This document shows, piece after piece, positions 1 through 27,547 of a DNA stretch of 64,000 nucleotides. The translations under genes were made by a program, and so were the position numbers. Each line of letters opens with the position of its first letter. Position 1 is the first letter of the stretch. Origin of the DNA: Candidatus Woesearchaeota archaeon UBA525 (GTDB taxonomy: Archaea; Nanobdellota; Nanobdellia; Woesearchaeales; UBA525); the NCBI GenBank assembly GCA_002498125.1, contig DAGG01000013.1, positions 18,196 through 82,195 on the forward strand. The letters are read 5' to 3'. The notes under the pieces are model-generated. The model worked only from the letters and a program-made list of their open reading frames with translations. It did no database searches and was not told where the DNA came from.

Positions 1-176
1 CCATAAACCGTCAGGCCCCCAGAGCAATTCGAGCGTCTGGTACCTATTTCGAGCGGTCTCTTACTTCCCCGGGAAAAGGGTTATTTAAACCTTTCCCTGG
101 GCCGTTCGTACACTCCTACCGGTAAAACGACTATATAAAACTTTCCTAAATGTATTCACTGTCCAGTAGGTTCAGA

Positions 177-473
177 TTACCTTTTGCTCGCTGCCTGAGG
201 AATCTGTTCACAATAACCCTCGTAGAGAATGTGCGCTCCGGAGCAGCGAGCATCGCAAGCAGAAGGATAGTTCGAAGCCTTGTTCCCGGCGCCAGCACAC
301 ACCGGTTCGCCGCTACAGGCAGAGCAGTCCTCTGCAGGCGCAGCAAACTCCTCGATCACACGGCCAGTCGGCGCACCGAGCGGCTCGTACGAAGGGAGTT
401 CCACGACGGTGAGCACGCCGACGATACCGACGACGGCGACAATTCCGAGAAGCATGAGCAGTGCGTTATCCAT
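177..473 (-). CDS. small Cys-rich membrane-anchored hypothetical protein (98 aa; one N-terminal TM, six Cys)
   Basis: ORF has a clean N-terminal hydrophobic helix and spaced Cys residues. TATA-like gcTTTAAATAct lies about 25 nt upstream on the minus strand. The overlapping plus-strand ORFs are Arg-rich frame artefacts. Confidence 0.4.
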   Translation of the reverse strand: MDNALLMLLGIVAVVGIVGVLTVVELPSYEPLGAPTGRVIEEFAAPAEDCSACSGEPVCAGAGNKASNYPSACDARCSGAHILYEGYCEQIPQAASKR

Positions 474-3107: not shown

Positions 3108-3902
3108 TTATGCCTTTCTCGTCAGGCGATGCTTCCCGCGAGTGGTGAACCACCATATCGCGATGCCGACCATCACGAGGCTGAACCACTGGCCGAGGCT
3201 CAATCCCAGGAGCGCGGGATCTGTCGGGTCGAACTCGCGGAAGAACGTGACGATGAAGCGGAACGTGCCGTAGAGGAGGATGAAGCTCCAGAACACAACT
3301 CCCTCTGCGAAGCGTTTGCTCTGCTCCATGACAAGCAGGATGATGAATATCACGTAGGAGTACAGTGCCTCGTATATCTGCGATGGGTGGCGGCAGCCGT
3401 CGGCATGCGGGAACTCGACGCACCAGGACACTTCAGTCACCCGTCCCCAGAGCTCGCCGTTCACGTAGTTGGCAAGCCTGCCGAAGACCAGGACGAGCGC
3501 GAGTGGCACGATGAGAATGTCTGCGAGGCGGTAGAATCCTATCTCGTGCTTGCGGCAGAAGTACCACGTCACAATCGCAGCGCCGATGAGACCGCCGTGG
3601 ATGCTCAACCCTCCCTTCCACACCGCAAGGATATCGATGAGATGCGTCAGGTAGTATGCGGGATTATAGAAGATGACATAGAAAAGCCGTGCGCCGATGA
3701 TGCTCCCGAGCATGAGCTGGAAGATGTAGTCCTCGGCGAGCTTTTTTGTCATCCCTGGCAGGAGGCCACGCTCTGCTGCGAGCTTGAGCACATAGTAGCC
3801 AAGGAAGAACCCTGCGGCGTAGACGAGACCGTACCATCGGACCTCGAGCGGTCCGAGCGAGAACGCGACAGGATCAAGGTCCCAGGTGATCATGGACTGC
3901 AC
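3108..3902 (-). CDS. lgt: prolipoprotein diacylglyceryl transferase
   Basis: Polytopic membrane protein. It contains GRLANYVNGELWG, which matches the Lgt PROSITE signature G-R-x-A-N-F-x-N-x-E-x2-G, and a GGLSIHGG motif. Confidence 0.75.
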   Translation of the reverse strand: MQSMITWDLDPVAFSLGPLEVRWYGLVYAAGFFLGYYVLKLAAERGLLPGMTKKLAEDYIFQLMLGSIIGARLFYVIFYNPAYYLTHLIDILAVWKGGLSIHGGLIGAAIVTWYFCRKHEIGFYRLADILIVPLALVLVFGRLANYVNGELWGRVTEVSWCVEFPHADGCRHPSQIYEALYSYVIFIILLVMEQSKRFAEGVVFWSFILLYGTFRFIVTFFREFDPTDPALLGLSLGQWFSLVMVGIAIWWFTTRGKHRLTRKA

Positions 3903-6802: not shown

Positions 6803-9800
6803 ATGCCAGGACCGTATGACTTCAAGTCAGTGGAATCCAGTACGCGGGAGTTTTGGGAGCAGAATCGCATCTATGAGAAGGCGAAGGAGGGCAACCAGAC
6901 GCCTGACCATAAGAAGTTCTACTTCCTGGACGGTCCTCCGTACACGAGCGGGAAAGCTCATATAGGCCATACCTGGAACCACGCGCTCAAAGATGTGGTG
7001 CTGCGCTACAAGCGCATGAGCGGCTTCAATGTCTGGGATCGCGCAGGCTACGACATGCACGGCCTACCGACAGAGCACGCCACAGAAAAGGAGCTCGGCA
7101 TCCATGGCCGCGAACAGATAGAGGCGTATGGCGTCGAGAAGTTCATCGATGAGTGCCGCAAAGTCTGCATCCGTAATATGCTGGAGATGAACAAGGTCTT
7201 CAAGAGCCTCGGCGTGTGGATGGACTTCGACAACGCCTATCAGCCGATCACGAAGGAGTTCATCGAAGGAGAATGGTGGTTCGTGAAAACGGCGCATGAG
7301 AAAGGACGCCTGTACGAGGGCGAGCGCACCATGACCTGGGACCCGACAAACGCGACTGCGCTCGCCAAGCATGAGCTCGAGTACAAGACCATCACCGACA
7401 CCGCCATCTACGTGAAGATGAGAGTCAAGGACGAGGCGGATACATACCTCATCATCTGGACCACCACGCCGTGGACCATACCGTTCAACCTCGCAATCAT
7501 GGCCAACCCTGACGTCACCTATGTCAAGGCAAAGGTTTTGCATGACGGCAAGCAACAGATATGGATTCTCGCGAAAGACCTCATGGATGAGTTCATCGTC
7601 GATAAAATGGGGACTGGCTACGAAATCATCAAAGAGCTCAAAGGAAGCGACATCGCAGGTCTCGAATACGAGCACCCCTTCGCAAGCAAGGCGCCGATCT
7701 ATGCCGAGCTCAAGAGCCGCATGCCAAAGGTCCACACAGTCCTCATGAGCACTGAGTACGTCGATACGAGCACAGGAACAGGTCTCGTCCACTGCGCACC
7801 AGGCTGCGGTCCTGAGGATTACGAGGTCGGCCATCGCAATGGCATCAAACCATTCAACACGCTCGATGAGCAGGGAGTCCTGCGCGATCTCGCCCCGTTC
7901 AACGGCCTCATCGCCAAGACAGACGATGACGAGTTCATCAGGCTCATCGATGAGGAGGGCGCTCTGCTGCACACGCACAAATACAGCCACGAGTACCCGC
8001 ATGGCGAGCGCAGCCGGCAGCCAGTCGTGTTCCGCACGACAAAGCAATGGTTCCTCAAGGTCGAGGACATCAAGGACAGGCTCATCGAAGAGAACAACAA
8101 GATAGCATGGCGACCGGAAGCCGCGTACAATGCCTTCAACAGCTGGCTCGAGAACCTGCGCGACAACAGCATCAGCAAGCAACGTTTCTGGGGCACACCC
8201 ATACCCGTCTGGCGTAGTACTGATGATCCTAAGGAGTATATCGTCGTCGGCAGCGCCAAGGAGCTCGCTGAGCTCGCCGGCCTAGACAAGGAGCCTGAAG
8301 ACCTGCACATCCCGACAGTGGACAAAATCACATTCAAACGCAAAGGCAAAGACGGCAAGATGCACGAGTACCGCCGCATCCCTGACGTCCTCGACGTATG
8401 GGTGGATGCCGGCACGACCAGCTGGAACTGCCTCTTCTATCCGGGCCGCCCCGACCTGCTCAAGGAGTGGTACCCTGCCGCATTTATCCTCGAAGGCAAG
8501 GACCAGATCCGCGGATGGTTCAACCTGCTGCACATCGCGAGCATGATAGCATTCGACAAGCCGGCGTTCAAGGCGGTGTACATGCACGGCTTCATCAACG
8601 ACTCGCAAGGCCGCAAGATGAGCAAGTCATTGGGCAACTACATCCTGCCTGAGGAGATCATCAGCAAATACGGGGTCGACACGACCCGCTACTACATGAT
8701 AGGCGCCGCGAATCCTGGATTCGACATGAACTACAACTTCGATGACACGGATGCAAAGTTCAAGAATATGCTCGTCTACTGGAACATGCACAACTACCTG
8801 CTCGAGCTCGCAGCGCTCGGCGACATAAAGCCGAAGCCCATCAGTTCCCTCGAGCTCGGTCTTGAGGAGCGCTACCTCCTCTCCAGACTGAATACTGCCA
8901 TCAAAGGGATGACAGAGGCGTTCGACGAGTACCGCCTCAATGAGACGCCGGTCATCGTAGAGGAGTTCCTCCTGGACATGAGCCGCACCTACATTCAGCT
9001 TGTGCGCGACAAGGCGACCGCGGGCACTGATGAGGAGAAAGAAACAGTTGTGAGCGCGCTCGCGCACAGCATGCTCGATGCCATGACGCTCTTCGCGCCC
9101 ATCGCGCCGTACTTCGCAGAAGCGATGTACCAAGACCTCAAGGCAGCTTTCCCTGAGATCTGCAAAGAGGAATCAATTCACCTGCGGCAGTGGCCGACAT
9201 CTGACGGAGAGCTCATCGATGAGCAGCTCGAGAAGGATTTCATCATCGCCAAAGACCTCATCGGCGCGATCCTCGCCGCACGCGACAAGGCGCAGCTGGG
9301 CGTGCGCTGGCCTGCCTCGCAGGTTCGCGTCGACTGCACACCTGTGCAAGCGGAGGCGATCCGACGCATGGAGACGCTCGTGAAGGTGCAGACGAACGTG
9401 AAGGACATCTCGTTCGAACCAGTCGAGGTCGAATATGTGATAGAGCCGAACACGAAGACCATCGGCAAGGCGTTCGGGAAGGAGACGCAGGAGGTCATGG
9501 CATTGATCGCACGCAGCCAGGAGGATATCACCCAGATGTTGCGCGAACGCAAGAGCCATATCATGCTCGACCAGAGGACCATCAAGGAGGAGCATCTCGA
9601 TATCAAGCGGCAGGCACCGGATAAGTACCAGCCTGGCGAAGGCAATGTGTTGCGCGCTTACCTCGACACTACGAGGACGCCGGAGCTCGAACGCGAAGGG
9701 TATGCCCGCGAGATCATCAGGCGCATCCAGCAGCTGCGCAAAACGGCCGGCCTTGTGAAGAGCGACCGCATCGGCGTGGAGATTACGAGCGCCGATAGCA

Positions 9801-11640: not shown

Positions 11641-11690
11641 TGGACCCGGCCAGATTTGAACTGACCATTCTCACTTCGTTCGGAGCCCGG
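11641..11690 (-). pseudogene. tRNA 3'-half-like fragment (degenerate copy of tRNA-Val T-arm and acceptor 3' strand plus conserved trailer motif)
   Basis: tggacccggccagatttgaactgacc matches 20 of 26 nt of the tRNA-Val 3' end. It has no 5' half, so it is not a functional tRNA. Confidence 0.5.
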
Positions 11691-11707
11691 TTCGTATTTT
11701 ATGAGAA

Positions 11708-11779
11708 TGGACCCGCCCGGATTTGAACCGGGGACCTCTACCGTGTGAAGGTAGCGCTCTACCACTAAGCTACGGGTCC
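11708..11779 (-). tRNA. tRNA-Val (anticodon CAC), CCA not encoded
   Basis: Manual fold GGACCCG-TA-GCTT-AGTGGTA-GAGC-G-CTACC-TTCACAC-GGTAG-AGGTC-CCCGG-TTCAAAT-CCGGG-CGGGTCC-A. Confidence 0.8.
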
Positions 11780-15192: not shown

Positions 15193-15729
15193 TTGCTGAT
15201 TGAACTGCGCGGGATGGACGCGATAAAATTCCTCAAGCAAGAGCACAAACGTATCAATGGACTCATCGATGATCTGCATAAGACCACAGAACGGGCCAAG
15301 CTGACGCGCCTCAAACTCCTCGCGGAGATCACTGAACAACTCGATGTCCATTCGCAGATCGAAGAGGAGATATTCTATCCGGAGTTCAACCGCGTGGCCA
15401 AGAAGAGAGAGCACCGCATCCTGCGACAGGAGGCTGAAGAGGAGCACGCGATAGTCGACCGTCTACTCAGGGAGATGCGCAGTTCGGATGTCGAGACAGA
15501 AGGATTCTCAGCGAAGGCAAAAGTGCTCAAGGACCTCGTAGAGCACCACGTCGAGGAAGAAGAAAAGCAGATGCTGCCGATGGCGAAGCGATTGATGTCT
15601 CCGGGGCTACTGCGCGAGCTCGGCGAGCGCATGCAGCAGCGCAAAGAGGAGATTGAGGACACGATAGCAGTCAATGCGCTCGTGGCGGCGACCCGTGATG
15701 ATGCAATCGCTGCGAAGAGGGTACAGTAG
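15193..15729 (+). CDS. hemerythrin HHE cation-binding domain protein
   Basis: H...HxxxE...H-rich four-helix pattern (EHKRING, HSQIEEE, HHVEEEE). Start may be the internal Met near 15214. Confidence 0.6.
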   Translation: MLIELRGMDAIKFLKQEHKRINGLIDDLHKTTERAKLTRLKLLAEITEQLDVHSQIEEEIFYPEFNRVAKKREHRILRQEAEEEHAIVDRLLREMRSSDVETEGFSAKAKVLKDLVEHHVEEEEKQMLPMAKRLMSPGLLRELGERMQQRKEEIEDTIAVNALVAATRDDAIAAKRVQ

Positions 15730-15824
15730 AAAGAGTGAAGATAGAAAGAGTGAAGACGCCCCCACGGGGCAATCTCACTAGCGTTCGGAGCCCCGCGGGG
15801 ACCACGAATGCAGCGAAGCGAAAT

Positions 15825-15896
15825 ACGCCCCCACGGGGAATTGAACCCCGGTCTCAGGGTTCGGAACCCTGAAGTCTATCCGTTAGCCTATGGGGG
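15825..15896 (-). tRNA. tRNA-Arg (anticodon CCG), CCA not encoded
   Basis: Manual fold: acceptor GCCCCCA/TGGGGGC, anticodon arm CAGGG-TTCCGAA-CCCTG, T arm CGGGG-TTCAATT-CCCCG. The D stem has one mismatch, shared with the second Arg tRNA. Confidence 0.7.
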
Positions 15897-16078
15897 CAGG
15901 ATCATTGAATCCTGATACAGGGGAACTCATTCCCCTCGCGCCGGCGTAGCATTGAACTATTTATAAAACTGACTTCCTCGTGAACGCACAGATTATTTTC
16001 CCTAAGTGAAGAAAACGTGCGCATTCTTTGTCCATTCATCACCTAACATATTTAGGCATACGGAGCGTAGGATGCCAT

Positions 16079-16996: not shown

Positions 16997-17220
16997 GTCC
17001 CGTCCTATTTTTCTCCTATTTTGACGAGGTGAAAAAACTATTGGACCGTATCGATAAGGAGGTGGAGAGCTACGGCAGGGAAGTAGGCCGTGTGCTGGAC
17101 AAACTTGATGACCTCGTGGGACCGGAGCCGCGCAAGAGGACCACGAAGAGAGCGACTACCAAGAGGGCGACGAAAAGAGTGGTAAATAGACCTGTCAAGA
17201 AAAACGCCCCCGCGAGGTAA
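16993..17220 (+). CDS. small coiled-coil protein with basic tail (75 aa)
   Basis: Overlaps the previous ORF by 4 nt; C-terminal KR-rich repeats TTKRATTKRATKR. Confidence 0.3.
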   Translation: MSPVLFFSYFDEVKKLLDRIDKEVESYGREVGRVLDKLDDLVGPEPRKRTTKRATTKRATKRVVNRPVKKNAPAR

Positions 17221-17275
17221 TCTCAGTTGCCTTCGAGACCTCGCGGGGACCTTGAATGACTGAAAGGAATGAGAA

Positions 17276-17347
17276 CGCCCCCGCGAGGAATTGAACCCCG
17301 ATCTCCAGGACCGCAACCTAGTGGTCTATCCGTTAGCCTACGGGGGC
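17276..17347 (-). tRNA. tRNA-Arg (anticodon GCG), CCA not encoded
   Basis: Manual fold GCCCCCG-TA-GGCT-AACGGAT-AGAC-CA-CTAGG-TTGCGGT-CCTGG-AGAT-CGGGG-TTCAATT-CCTCG-CGGGGGC-G. TATA gcTTTTTAAAc about 35 nt upstream. Confidence 0.7.
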
Positions 17348-27475: not shown

Positions 27476-27547
27476 GCGTCTGTAGTGCAGTGGTTAACAT
27501 ACGAGCTTCCCAAGCTTGTGACCCGGGTTCGACTCCCGGCAGACGCA
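27476..27547 (+). tRNA. tRNA-Gly (anticodon CCC), CCA not encoded
   Basis: Manual fold: acceptor GCGTCTG/CAGACGC, anticodon arm CGAGC-TTCCCAA-GCTTG, T arm CCGGG-TTCGACT-CCCGG. Confidence 0.75.

Follow-up and report, generated by a model that had tools for sequence, protein, structure and literature searches.

The hairpin module characterized here lies directly downstream of a tRNA-Arg(CCG) gene of Candidatus Woesearchaeota archaeon UBA525, in a stretch of 64,000 nucleotides (nt) of contig DAGG01000013.1 (assembly GCA_002498125.1); this whole stretch is hereafter called the window. The source contig, from a DPANN archaeon, is 192.7 kb long. The window encodes archaeal TFB, IleRS (isoleucyl-tRNA synthetase) and similar genes, and the best matches to its TFB are 85-93% identical and labelled Woesearchaeota or Nanoarchaeia. 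Four tRNA genes are present, with TTTATAAA boxes upstream; an earlier, sequence-only reading of the window had held that CCA is not encoded, and this is the case for all four (0/4 encode it). Three of the four (Arg-CCG, Arg-GCG and Val) are followed by a module. In every archaeal copy, here and in other genomes, the parts of the module occur in the same order: (i) the gene end (X1), (ii) a spacer of at most ~24 nt, (iii) an inverted copy of the gene end (X'), (iv) a short conserved core, and (v) a direct copy of the gene end (X2). At the Arg(CCG) locus, these parts are:

15826-15897, minus strand: tRNA-Arg(CCG), complete, intron-less, no encoded CCA (Rfam tRNA model, 56.1 bits; ARAGORN agrees).
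15825-15838, minus strand: X1, the upstream repeat copy and functional 3' end of tRNA-Arg(CCG) (exact 14-mer match; tRNA alignment).
15803-15824, minus strand: spacer of 22 nt from the tRNA end to the hairpin, not conserved in alignment A1.
15790-15802, minus strand: X', the 13-nt 5' strand of the hairpin, GUCCCCGCGGGGC (fold; covariance-model match at 15758-15801, 55.8 bits; pair counts).
15771-15789, minus strand: conserved core, UCCGAAC-GCUA-GUGAGAUU, folding as an apical mini-hairpin (2 bp, tandem G.A/A.G, 2 bp, GNNA tetraloop).
15756-15770, minus strand: X2, the downstream 14-nt repeat copy (15756-15769) with the stem-closing G15770 (exact match; fold).

The 14-mer ACGCCCCCACGGGG occurs exactly twice on the plus strand, at 15756-15769 and 15825-15838, the two copies being separated by 55 nt. 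The sequence-only reading had recognized this perfect direct repeat of the tRNA 3' end and had placed the first copy correctly, but its second copy was one base off; the spacer, given as 54 nt, is therefore 55 nt long. When up to two mismatches are allowed, the window contains four matches against 0.21 expected, and 0/100 shuffles reach four. The two additional matches are the equivalent pair at tRNA-Arg(GCG) (ACGCCCCCGCGAGG, 17204-17217 and 17275-17288), which carries that tRNA's own sequence. With tRNA-Arg(CCG) placed at 15826-15897 on the minus strand, the upstream repeat copy corresponds to the T-stem 3' strand, the acceptor 3' strand, the discriminator G and one further base. A chance repeat, or an ordinary overlapping pseudo-tRNA, can be given almost no weight as an explanation: it has the GC-rich, low-complexity look of the 14-mer in its favour and nothing else, and it is contradicted by the shuffles, by the recurrence of the architecture at other loci (below), and by the Rfam tRNA model (RF00005), which matches 15826-15897 only and has no match on 15756-15824 even at E<=10. 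The sequence-only reading had likewise considered chance unlikely.

The downstream part of the module folds into a hairpin, as had been proposed; its size, however, is a 13-bp stem with a 19-nt loop, rather than 10 bp with 21 nt. The stem pairs GUCCCCGCGGGGC (15802-15790) with GCCCCGUGGGGGC (15770-15758), and the 19-nt loop inside it is itself structured. The 5' strand, X', repeats the tRNA 3' end in inverted orientation and is similar to the 5' strands of acceptor and T-stem combined, while X2 forms the 3' strand and remains joined to the old downstream flank. Of the 13 bp, seven are acceptor-like, five are those of a T-stem and one is additional; the discriminator comes next. The predicted fold of the Arg(CCG) hairpin is that of an acceptor/T-arm minihelix with a structured loop of 19 nt in place of the T-loop. 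This minihelix mimicry, and the sharing of the core with a T-loop intron (below), are points that the sequence-only reading did not contain.

The core has the consensus YCGAAS-GNNA-S'UGAGAWU (18-19 nt). Its fold comprises 2 bp, tandem G.A pairs, another 2 bp and a tetraloop; in order, the pairings are Y-C, G.A, A.G, A-S, the GNNA tetraloop, S'-U, G.A and G-A. The motif CGAASG-N(2-5)-STGAGAWT occurs exactly three times in the 64 kb (0.01 expected), each time directly 3' of a tRNA gene (Val, Arg-CCG and Arg-GCG). The fourth tRNA gene, tRNA-Gly(CCC) at 27476-27547, has neither the core nor a 3'-end repeat in its trailer. Covariance model R1 likewise matches the window at the three tRNA-linked copies only, and has no match in the tRNA-free loci of relatives. 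The features of the other two module-bearing loci are:

17276-17347, minus strand: tRNA-Arg(GCG), with a paralogous module attached (Rfam tRNA model, 51.6 bits).
17203-17275, minus strand: Arg(GCG) module (covariance-model match at 17206-17249, 54.3 bits; fold).
17274-17288 and 17203-17217, minus strand: exact 15-nt repeat, X1 (overlapping the tRNA end) and X2, respectively.
17251-17273, minus strand: Arg(GCG) spacer.
17238-17250, minus strand: Arg(GCG) X'.
17219-17237, minus strand: Arg(GCG) core.
17206-17218, minus strand: Arg(GCG) stem 3' strand.
11708-11779, minus strand: tRNA-Val(CAC), with a diverged module attached (Rfam tRNA model, 73.4 bits).
11641-11707, minus strand: Val module (weak covariance-model match, 17 bits).
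11667-11683, minus strand: Val core in a triloop version, CCGAAC-GAA-GUGAGAAU.
11641-11666, minus strand: degenerate copy of the Val T-arm and acceptor 3' strand, GGUCAGUUCAAAUCUGGCCGGGUCCA.

The two Arg modules are clear paralogues, with GGUCCCCGCG common to both, and yet each X2 matches its own tRNA. In the Arg(GCG) module, X' has an A opposite U63 of X2, where the tRNA itself retains G.U. The homology that the sequence-only reading saw among the Arg(CCG), Arg(GCG) and Val trailers is borne out for the core, while the remaining spacer is not conserved. Val has an inverted repeat, TTCTCA...TGAGAA, of which Arg(GCG) shows a part; neither Arg(CCG) nor any locus in other genomes has it. An inverted arm reaching into the flank at Val was plausible with permissive alignment, and was dropped because strict scoring was not significant (158/500 shuffles).

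Modules of the same kind are found in other genomes, whose retrieved loci and contigs are given L-numbers (L059, L068, L069, L090 etc.). When 185,579 species genomes were scanned for GGYYYCGAASGNNASTGAGAWT, 33 matches were obtained. Seven of them are in metagenome-assembled genomes (MAGs) of Woesearchaeota/Nanoarchaeia; the remaining matches are scattered among bacteria, show no stem or repeat, and fit the ~70 matches estimated for chance. A metagenome scan added L092, L095 and L090. The sequence-only reading had proposed a motif search of this kind, and the core indeed recurs in other genomes: the module is present in at least six other Woesearchaeota/Nanoarchaeia assemblies, its stems always locus-specific, and the same architecture, each time with its own sequence, is found at at least 13 loci in several genomes. 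Among the tRNAs in hand, a downstream copy of the 3' end accompanies 9/9 tRNAs with a core, versus 0/5 without. The loci were collected by motif search, which biases these frequencies. A full-text literature search and Rfam returned no description of such hairpin modules, which to this extent are previously undescribed; no Rfam family matches the module, even at E<=10.

Individual copies vary on this plan. MAG STB_88 carries modules at tRNA-Gly(UCC), tRNA-Gly(CCC) and tRNA-Gly(GCC). At L059, a tRNA-Thr is followed by two tandem cores (3367-3430, minus strand), a triloop version directly after the tRNA and then a tetraloop version with X2; the direct repeat is 17 nt long and reaches 5 nt beyond the discriminator. 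The arrangement resembles the outcome of nested or repeated insertion at a single site. The module of L068 abuts an intron-containing tRNA with no spacer at all. At L092, the module follows tRNA-Gly(CCC), with a T5 run (a typical archaeal terminator) between tRNA and module, and the inverted arm enters the flank beyond X2 (3/500 shuffles). A variant core with a longer apical stem is associated with tRNA-Val(UAC) of L090. Across loci, X2 starts mostly at tRNA position 61-63, once at 66, and near 45 in the window Val module; the repeats are 9, 12-13, 13, 14, 15, 16, 17, about 28 and 40 nt long, and at every locus 46-70 nt lie between or after them.

Alignment of 12 module copies, cut in register (alignment A2), shows that the hairpin is maintained while its sequence changes. 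Firstly, 81% of the cells of a 16-pair hairpin are paired, versus 32-46% with slid partners. Secondly, 10 of the 16 pairs vary on both sides, the observed covariation is reached by 0/500 shuffles, and RNAalifold independently recovers most of the hairpin. Thirdly, the tetraloop keeps its G and A with a variable middle (GAGA, GAUA, GCAA, GCUA, GUGA, GAAA, GCCA, GUCA), and the pair closing it, C:G elsewhere, is G:C in the Arg(GCG) copy. This pattern of variation in the core points to a folded single strand, most simply RNA.

One explanation of this pattern is that the module is a functional RNA of the tRNA transcript: an acceptor/T-arm minihelix with a protein-binding tandem-G.A/GNNA core, serving as a signal for processing, termination or quality control, or cut out by RNase P and RNase Z as an independent small RNA. 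The composition of the 13-bp stem with its discriminator, the high conservation of the core with its GNNA loop and one compensatory change, the position of the module (always on the tRNA strand and directly downstream), and the way in which X2 tracks tRNA substitutions are all as expected of such an RNA. The same can be said of an archaeal RNase P RNA encoded in a module-bearing MAG. Several observations stand against it. No Rfam family matches; the window's tRNA-Gly(CCC) has no module; at L092, the T5 run separates tRNA from module; and L108, L109 and L069, described next, are difficult to reconcile with it. On balance, we consider this explanation rather unlikely.

The filled and empty sites are provided by L108 and L109, two orthologous loci that were found with the radical-SAM gene beside the STB_88 tRNA-Gly(CCC) as an anchor. 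The two have an identical tRNA-Gly(CCC) and downstream flanks that are ~90% identical (alignment A3). L108 carries a 46-nt unit of module plus repeat, and L109 is the exact empty site. The L108 module shares a TCAG spacer and the same two X' mismatches with the STB_88 modules, and is hence orthologous to them; the simplest history to be read from these sequences would be that the module was present ancestrally and was then lost precisely from L109, by way of the 12-nt direct repeats. The core of L108 is itself degenerate (CGAA to GGAA, GAGAAU to GACAAC, and one loop base lost). X2 of L108 mirrors both acceptor-strand substitutions that separate its tRNA from that of STB_88, and X' mirrors one of them; together with the window Arg modules, this indicates that the three copies evolve in concert. 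The core can thus decay, and the whole unit disappear, while the tRNA is unchanged. The sequence-only reading had offered a conserved 3'-trailer structure for tRNA processing as an alternative; as something the tRNA requires, this is not supported, given one window tRNA in four without it, identical tRNA-Gly genes with and without it, and a lineage in which its core is decaying; a role of some kind at the RNA level is still conceivable. The contigs L112-L114, from two further relatives of the tRNA-Gly locus, stop before the tRNA or inside it. That of a close relative, L112 (4107-4170), breaks inside the T-stem 3' strand of tRNA-Gly(CCC), exactly at the start of the X repeat; duplicated tRNA ends may fragment short-read assemblies.

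The copy at L069 shows that the target need not be a tRNA gene. Here, the module precedes a minD/parA-like gene and lies on the other strand. The 40-nt repeat contains three substitutions, has diverged at its 5' edge, and stops precisely at the ATG. X1 belongs to the intact gene, and X2 remains with the old Shine-Dalgarno-like sequence and flank. The stretch from X1 to the core is a decayed inverted copy of X2 of ~20-30 nt (0/500 shuffles). The resulting stem is not tRNA-like, and the copy is antisense to the protein gene, both of which count against a functional RNA of the tRNA transcript. The displaced start of the minD-like gene (355-447, minus strand) retains a Shine-Dalgarno-like GGAGG and an ATG; this ATG opens a 31-codon frame through the module, and the TGA stop of the frame overlaps the real ATG (ATGA). 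The arrangement suggests that translational coupling could maintain expression of the minD-like gene.

Plant mitochondrial t-elements and mascRNA/MEN-beta are tRNA-like minihelices that act as processing signals next to a gene in a transcript. The module has in common with them a predicted coaxial helix of acceptor and T-stem, 12-13 bp long, with the discriminator, a likeness of shape. It differs in that its 19-nt core replaces the T-loop, its 3' strand copies the neighbouring tRNA exactly, and the L069 copy is not tRNA-like; the sole match of the Rfam mascRNA model is on the real tRNA and not on the module. Other RNA or priming structures were considered and rejected. A C/D box small RNA or K-turn was dropped after inspection of the alignment (no C/D boxes; four extra nt, GAWU, on the strand opposite the bulge; no Rfam small RNA match), as were, by inspection, H/ACA RNA, the hammerhead and the sarcin-ricin loop. 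A primer-binding site, complementary to the 3' end of the tRNA with CCA, was also rejected, as the sequence preceding X' does not match one.

Two side observations concern L079, a contig of the module-bearing MAG SO_2017_GW1_84. At 100-160 (minus strand), a module copy follows a TATA-like ATATATATAAA box within a few nt. No tRNA can be recognised upstream of it, and its direct repeat (CTTGCGG/CTTTCGG) is weak; this copy may be independently transcribed. At 3251-3611, the contig encodes an archaeal RNase P RNA (Rfam, 110 bits), from which it follows that the lineage has an RNA-based RNase P, unlike Nanoarchaeum equitans.

The extent of the repeats invites comparison with the attachment (att) sites of integrative elements. 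In tRNA genes, the identity blocks of att sites typically start at the T-loop/T-stem junction and stop shortly beyond the end of the gene, as do the repeats here; a 'T-loop sublocation' is known among them, and the start of the module in the T-loop region resembles it. One could accordingly read the module as an attL/attR scar of a tRNA-targeted virus or plasmid that has been almost fully deleted, or that is itself only ~55 nt long; such a scar was among the proposals of the sequence-only reading. As with elements that use SSV-type or pNOB8-type integrases, the 3' part of the tRNA is repeated to just beyond the gene end and the gene is rebuilt, and the copy at minD likewise ends exactly at a gene boundary. 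For Caldiarchaeum, tRNA fragments and the gain of introns have been connected with the integration of an element that carries a recombinase (PMC3293823). However, only 46-70 nt lie between or after the repeats (55-57 nt between them at the two Arg loci), and each of at least ten independent loci would have had to keep the same ~20-nt core and nothing more. The core is absent from the target, and so cannot act as an att crossover region. The extra inverted copy, X', which forms the hairpin and co-varies with X2, lies outside the att model. No recombinase (integrase or transposase Pfam domain) is encoded in the 14.8 kb around the window Arg loci, and no free counterpart was found: three scans of 2.9 million viral contigs gave chance-like matches only, with no stem or repeat. 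An att scar is, in our judgement, improbable.

One of the viral matches, L099 (IMG/VR 3300025030_000515), was considered as a viral counterpart and rejected, given its AT-rich bacterial-phage context with sigma-70-type promoters and a match count that fits chance. It contains, at 7427-7590, a perfect 34-bp inverted repeat with the core sequence TTCGAACGCAAGTGAGAAT in each arm and ~85 bp between the arms; this is a striking coincidence, but probably unrelated to the module.

Small mobile elements offer a further comparison, and the sequence-only reading had also suggested a miniature inverted-repeat transposable element (MITE). Like MITEs, repetitive extragenic palindromes and their mosaic arrays (REP/BIME), and the IS200/IS605-derived palindrome-associated elements (PATEs), the module is small, hairpin-forming and non-coding, has several copies per genome, and differs in presence and absence among relatives (L108/L109). 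Unlike them, it has no consistent terminal inverted repeats, its target duplication, of 9 to 40 nt, stops at a gene boundary, and its stem comes from target sequence, so that the loop alone is conserved. A MITE in the usual sense is hence not what we see. The 14/15-nt repeats at the Arg loci also fit the 14-15-bp target duplication of the casposon at a tRNA 3' end; here too, other loci with repeats of 9 to 40 nt, the lack of terminal inverted repeats, and the absence of genes between the repeats set the module apart.

The core also relates the module to introns in the T-loop. Position 59/60 is a known non-canonical site of archaeal tRNA introns, and similar introns occur in unrelated tRNAs, a phenomenon termed 'intron transposition' (Fujishima et al. 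2010, as summarised in PMC4090602); its mechanism is called unknown and is presumed to act at the DNA level (PMC4090602). L090 (JGI Ga0180007_10101799) contains four tRNAs and three core copies in 1.9 kb. The cluster consists of tRNA-Gly(GCC), tRNA-Ile(UAU) with two introns, tRNA-Ala(CGC), and tRNA-Val(UAC) with two introns, and most of these tRNAs are missed or mis-called by Rfam and ARAGORN. In tRNA-Ala(CGC), a 44-nt insert lies between the T-loop and the T-stem 3' strand (59/60), and its last 18 nt are the core. Without the insert, the tRNA is a perfect cloverleaf with the G3.U70 alanine identity pair. In the fold of the unspliced tRNA, the T-stem is followed by a helix between T-loop UUC(G) and core (A)GAA, with 3-nt bulges GAA and UGU; as modelled, the insert is a relaxed bulge-helix-bulge (BHB) with a 3-bp helix plus G.A. 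tRNA-Ile(UAU) and tRNA-Val(UAC) carry inserts of 31 nt and 135 nt at the same position, and removal of these restores perfect tRNAs. Both inserts end in YGAA-AG|U, which pairs with T-loop UUCR. The tRNA-Ile insert, drawn by hand from the sequence, has a full canonical BHB with bulges AAU and AGU, while the inner helix of the tRNA-Val insert is loosely paired. The core itself can be read as a T-loop look-alike (YUCGAA) plus a 12-nt insert and the invariant U, which would make it a miniature T-loop with a 59/60 mini-intron.

The modules therefore share with BHB introns at 59/60 (i) a core that is the 3' end of the tRNA-Ala insert, the removal of which restores the tRNA, (ii) the neighbouring inserts at the same position, and (iii) the occurrence of one conserved sequence at many tRNA types, as in intron transposition. 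They differ in that the window modules lie outside complete tRNAs (Rfam tRNA model, 51-73 bits, with no sequence removed) and interrupt nothing. In place of a BHB, in which a 4-bp helix separates two 3-nt bulges on opposite strands, the window Arg modules have an uninterrupted 13-bp stem and a 1x2-nt asymmetric loop beside the tandem G.A. Pairing of the intron 3' end with T-loop nucleotides 54-57 is seen in the fold of L090 tRNA-Ala, as GAGAA with UUC(G). The modules are also accompanied by direct and inverted copies of the 3' exon, and one of them lies at a protein gene on the opposite strand.

It is conceivable that the trailer is nevertheless an alternative 3' exon, with the BHB endonuclease splicing from T-loop position 59 to X2 and the module being a functional intron with a redundant internal exon copy. 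The 3' half of the core (GAGAA-UG) sits where the intron 3' end lies in L090 tRNA-Ala, X2 tracks the tRNA acceptor, and, by inspection, the core 3' half can pair with T-loop UUCG in the STB_88 tRNA-Gly. In the window, however, only two Watson-Crick pairs are possible between Arg T-loop UUCAAUU and core end GAGAUUG, and the perfect 13-bp stem provides no second 3-nt bulge 4 bp away. Splicing to X2 would lose U60, as well as C61 in tRNA-Gly, and the upstream tRNA is already complete. We regard this possibility as decidedly improbable.

The module departs from BHB introns, att scars and MITEs in a tested defining feature of each, and probably from t-elements as well. The module behaves as a dispensable DNA indel unit at many different genes, and the gene is never disrupted. 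With belief and doubt about evenly balanced, we interpret the modules as a family of ~45-70-nt non-autonomous DNA insertion modules, specific to Woesearchaeota-type DPANN archaea and related to T-loop introns, the arms of which are copied from the target. In outline, this agrees with an element with a target duplication, one of the possibilities raised by the sequence-only reading: the core recurs with stems made from local gene ends, one copy lies at a protein gene, and an exact empty site exists.

We propose that the core inserts into tRNA genes at the T-loop/T-stem junction or close to it, and occasionally near the end of another gene. Repair of the break by fold-back template switching, at or near the palindromic T-arm, would copy the target in inverted and direct form, and only those insertion events that rebuild a complete gene would survive. 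The three copies would then co-evolve through templated correction. As the gene retains an intact X1, the upstream copy would still yield a normal tRNA: cleavage behind the discriminator, presumably by RNase Z, would set the 3' end, CCA would be added, and the module would be left as a hairpin in the 3' trailer. The flanking direct repeats would permit precise loss of the module, with the retained repeat protecting the gene; deletion of X1 instead would convert the module into a T-loop intron. For this scheme, we infer the insertion mechanism, co-transcription with the tRNA, RNase Z removal and near-neutrality from the arrangement of the sequences.

Comparable products are known from DUP-TRP/INV-DUP fold-back duplications and from quasipalindrome template switching, in which copies lie in direct-inverted-direct order and change in concert. 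The module has this order, and its three copies do so too; it is unlike these duplications in having a conserved non-target sequence at its centre, and in recurring at the same kind of site in many genomes.

A number of points weigh against an insertion module. No enzyme is assigned to the insertion, the mechanism of which we infer. The sample is biased, since the loci were found by motif search. Every tRNA-linked copy is on the tRNA strand; and the strong conservation of the core across assemblies, the tetraloop with its conserved G..A, and the one C:G to G:C change fit a selected RNA as well as they fit a signal for mobility. The direction of change between L108 and L109 is deduced, and the favoured loss in L109 speaks for a dispensable and excisable unit without thereby giving evidence of insertion. 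The end of the repeat always lies 0-5 nt beyond the gene end, which no model fully accounts for: random staggered cuts followed by selection would not obviously give a spread of 0-5 nt.

A more specific extension of the insertion-module interpretation, which we put forward as possible but doubtful, is that the modules are DNA-level intermediates of archaeal tRNA intron movement. Insertion with a protective duplication of the 3' exon would be followed either by deletion of the upstream copy, giving a 59/60 BHB intron (as in L090 tRNA-Ala), or by recombination between the repeats, giving clean erasure (as in L109).

The surroundings of the window loci add some observations. A convergent gene for a hemerythrin-like protein (15193-15729) adjoins the Arg(CCG) module. 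Close archaeal homologues of this gene are lacking; the next best matches are ~50-54% identical, and the few labelled ones are bacterial, which suggests that the gene may have been horizontally acquired. One further feature lies where this gene and the module meet:

15727-15756, no strand assigned: perfect 15-nt tandem duplication, TAGAAAGAGTGAAGA x2 (Tandem Repeats Finder).

It starts at the stop codon of the hemerythrin-like gene and finishes exactly where X2 begins; it may be a second gene-end duplication from the same event, or simple slippage. No tRNA is present in ~13 kb of additional sequence from the same genome, and the TFB neighbourhood of relatives that are 88-93% identical (L002, L003 and L006) contains neither tRNAs nor modules.

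The work described here finds one conserved sequence in three states across related DPANN genomes: (i) a T-loop intron, (ii) a post-tRNA module with a duplicated 3' exon, and (iii) a clean empty site. How archaeal tRNA introns spread to new positions and new tRNAs is an open question, which the three states make testable through comparative genomics and RNA-seq. The exact 12-17-nt repeats of tRNA ends, together with strong hairpins, could mislead tRNA annotation, att-site prediction and metagenome assembly in DPANN archaea. If the modules are indeed intermediates of intron movement, they would provide the first concrete mechanism for archaeal 'intron transposition' and would represent a new class of element, with hairpin arms templated from the target.

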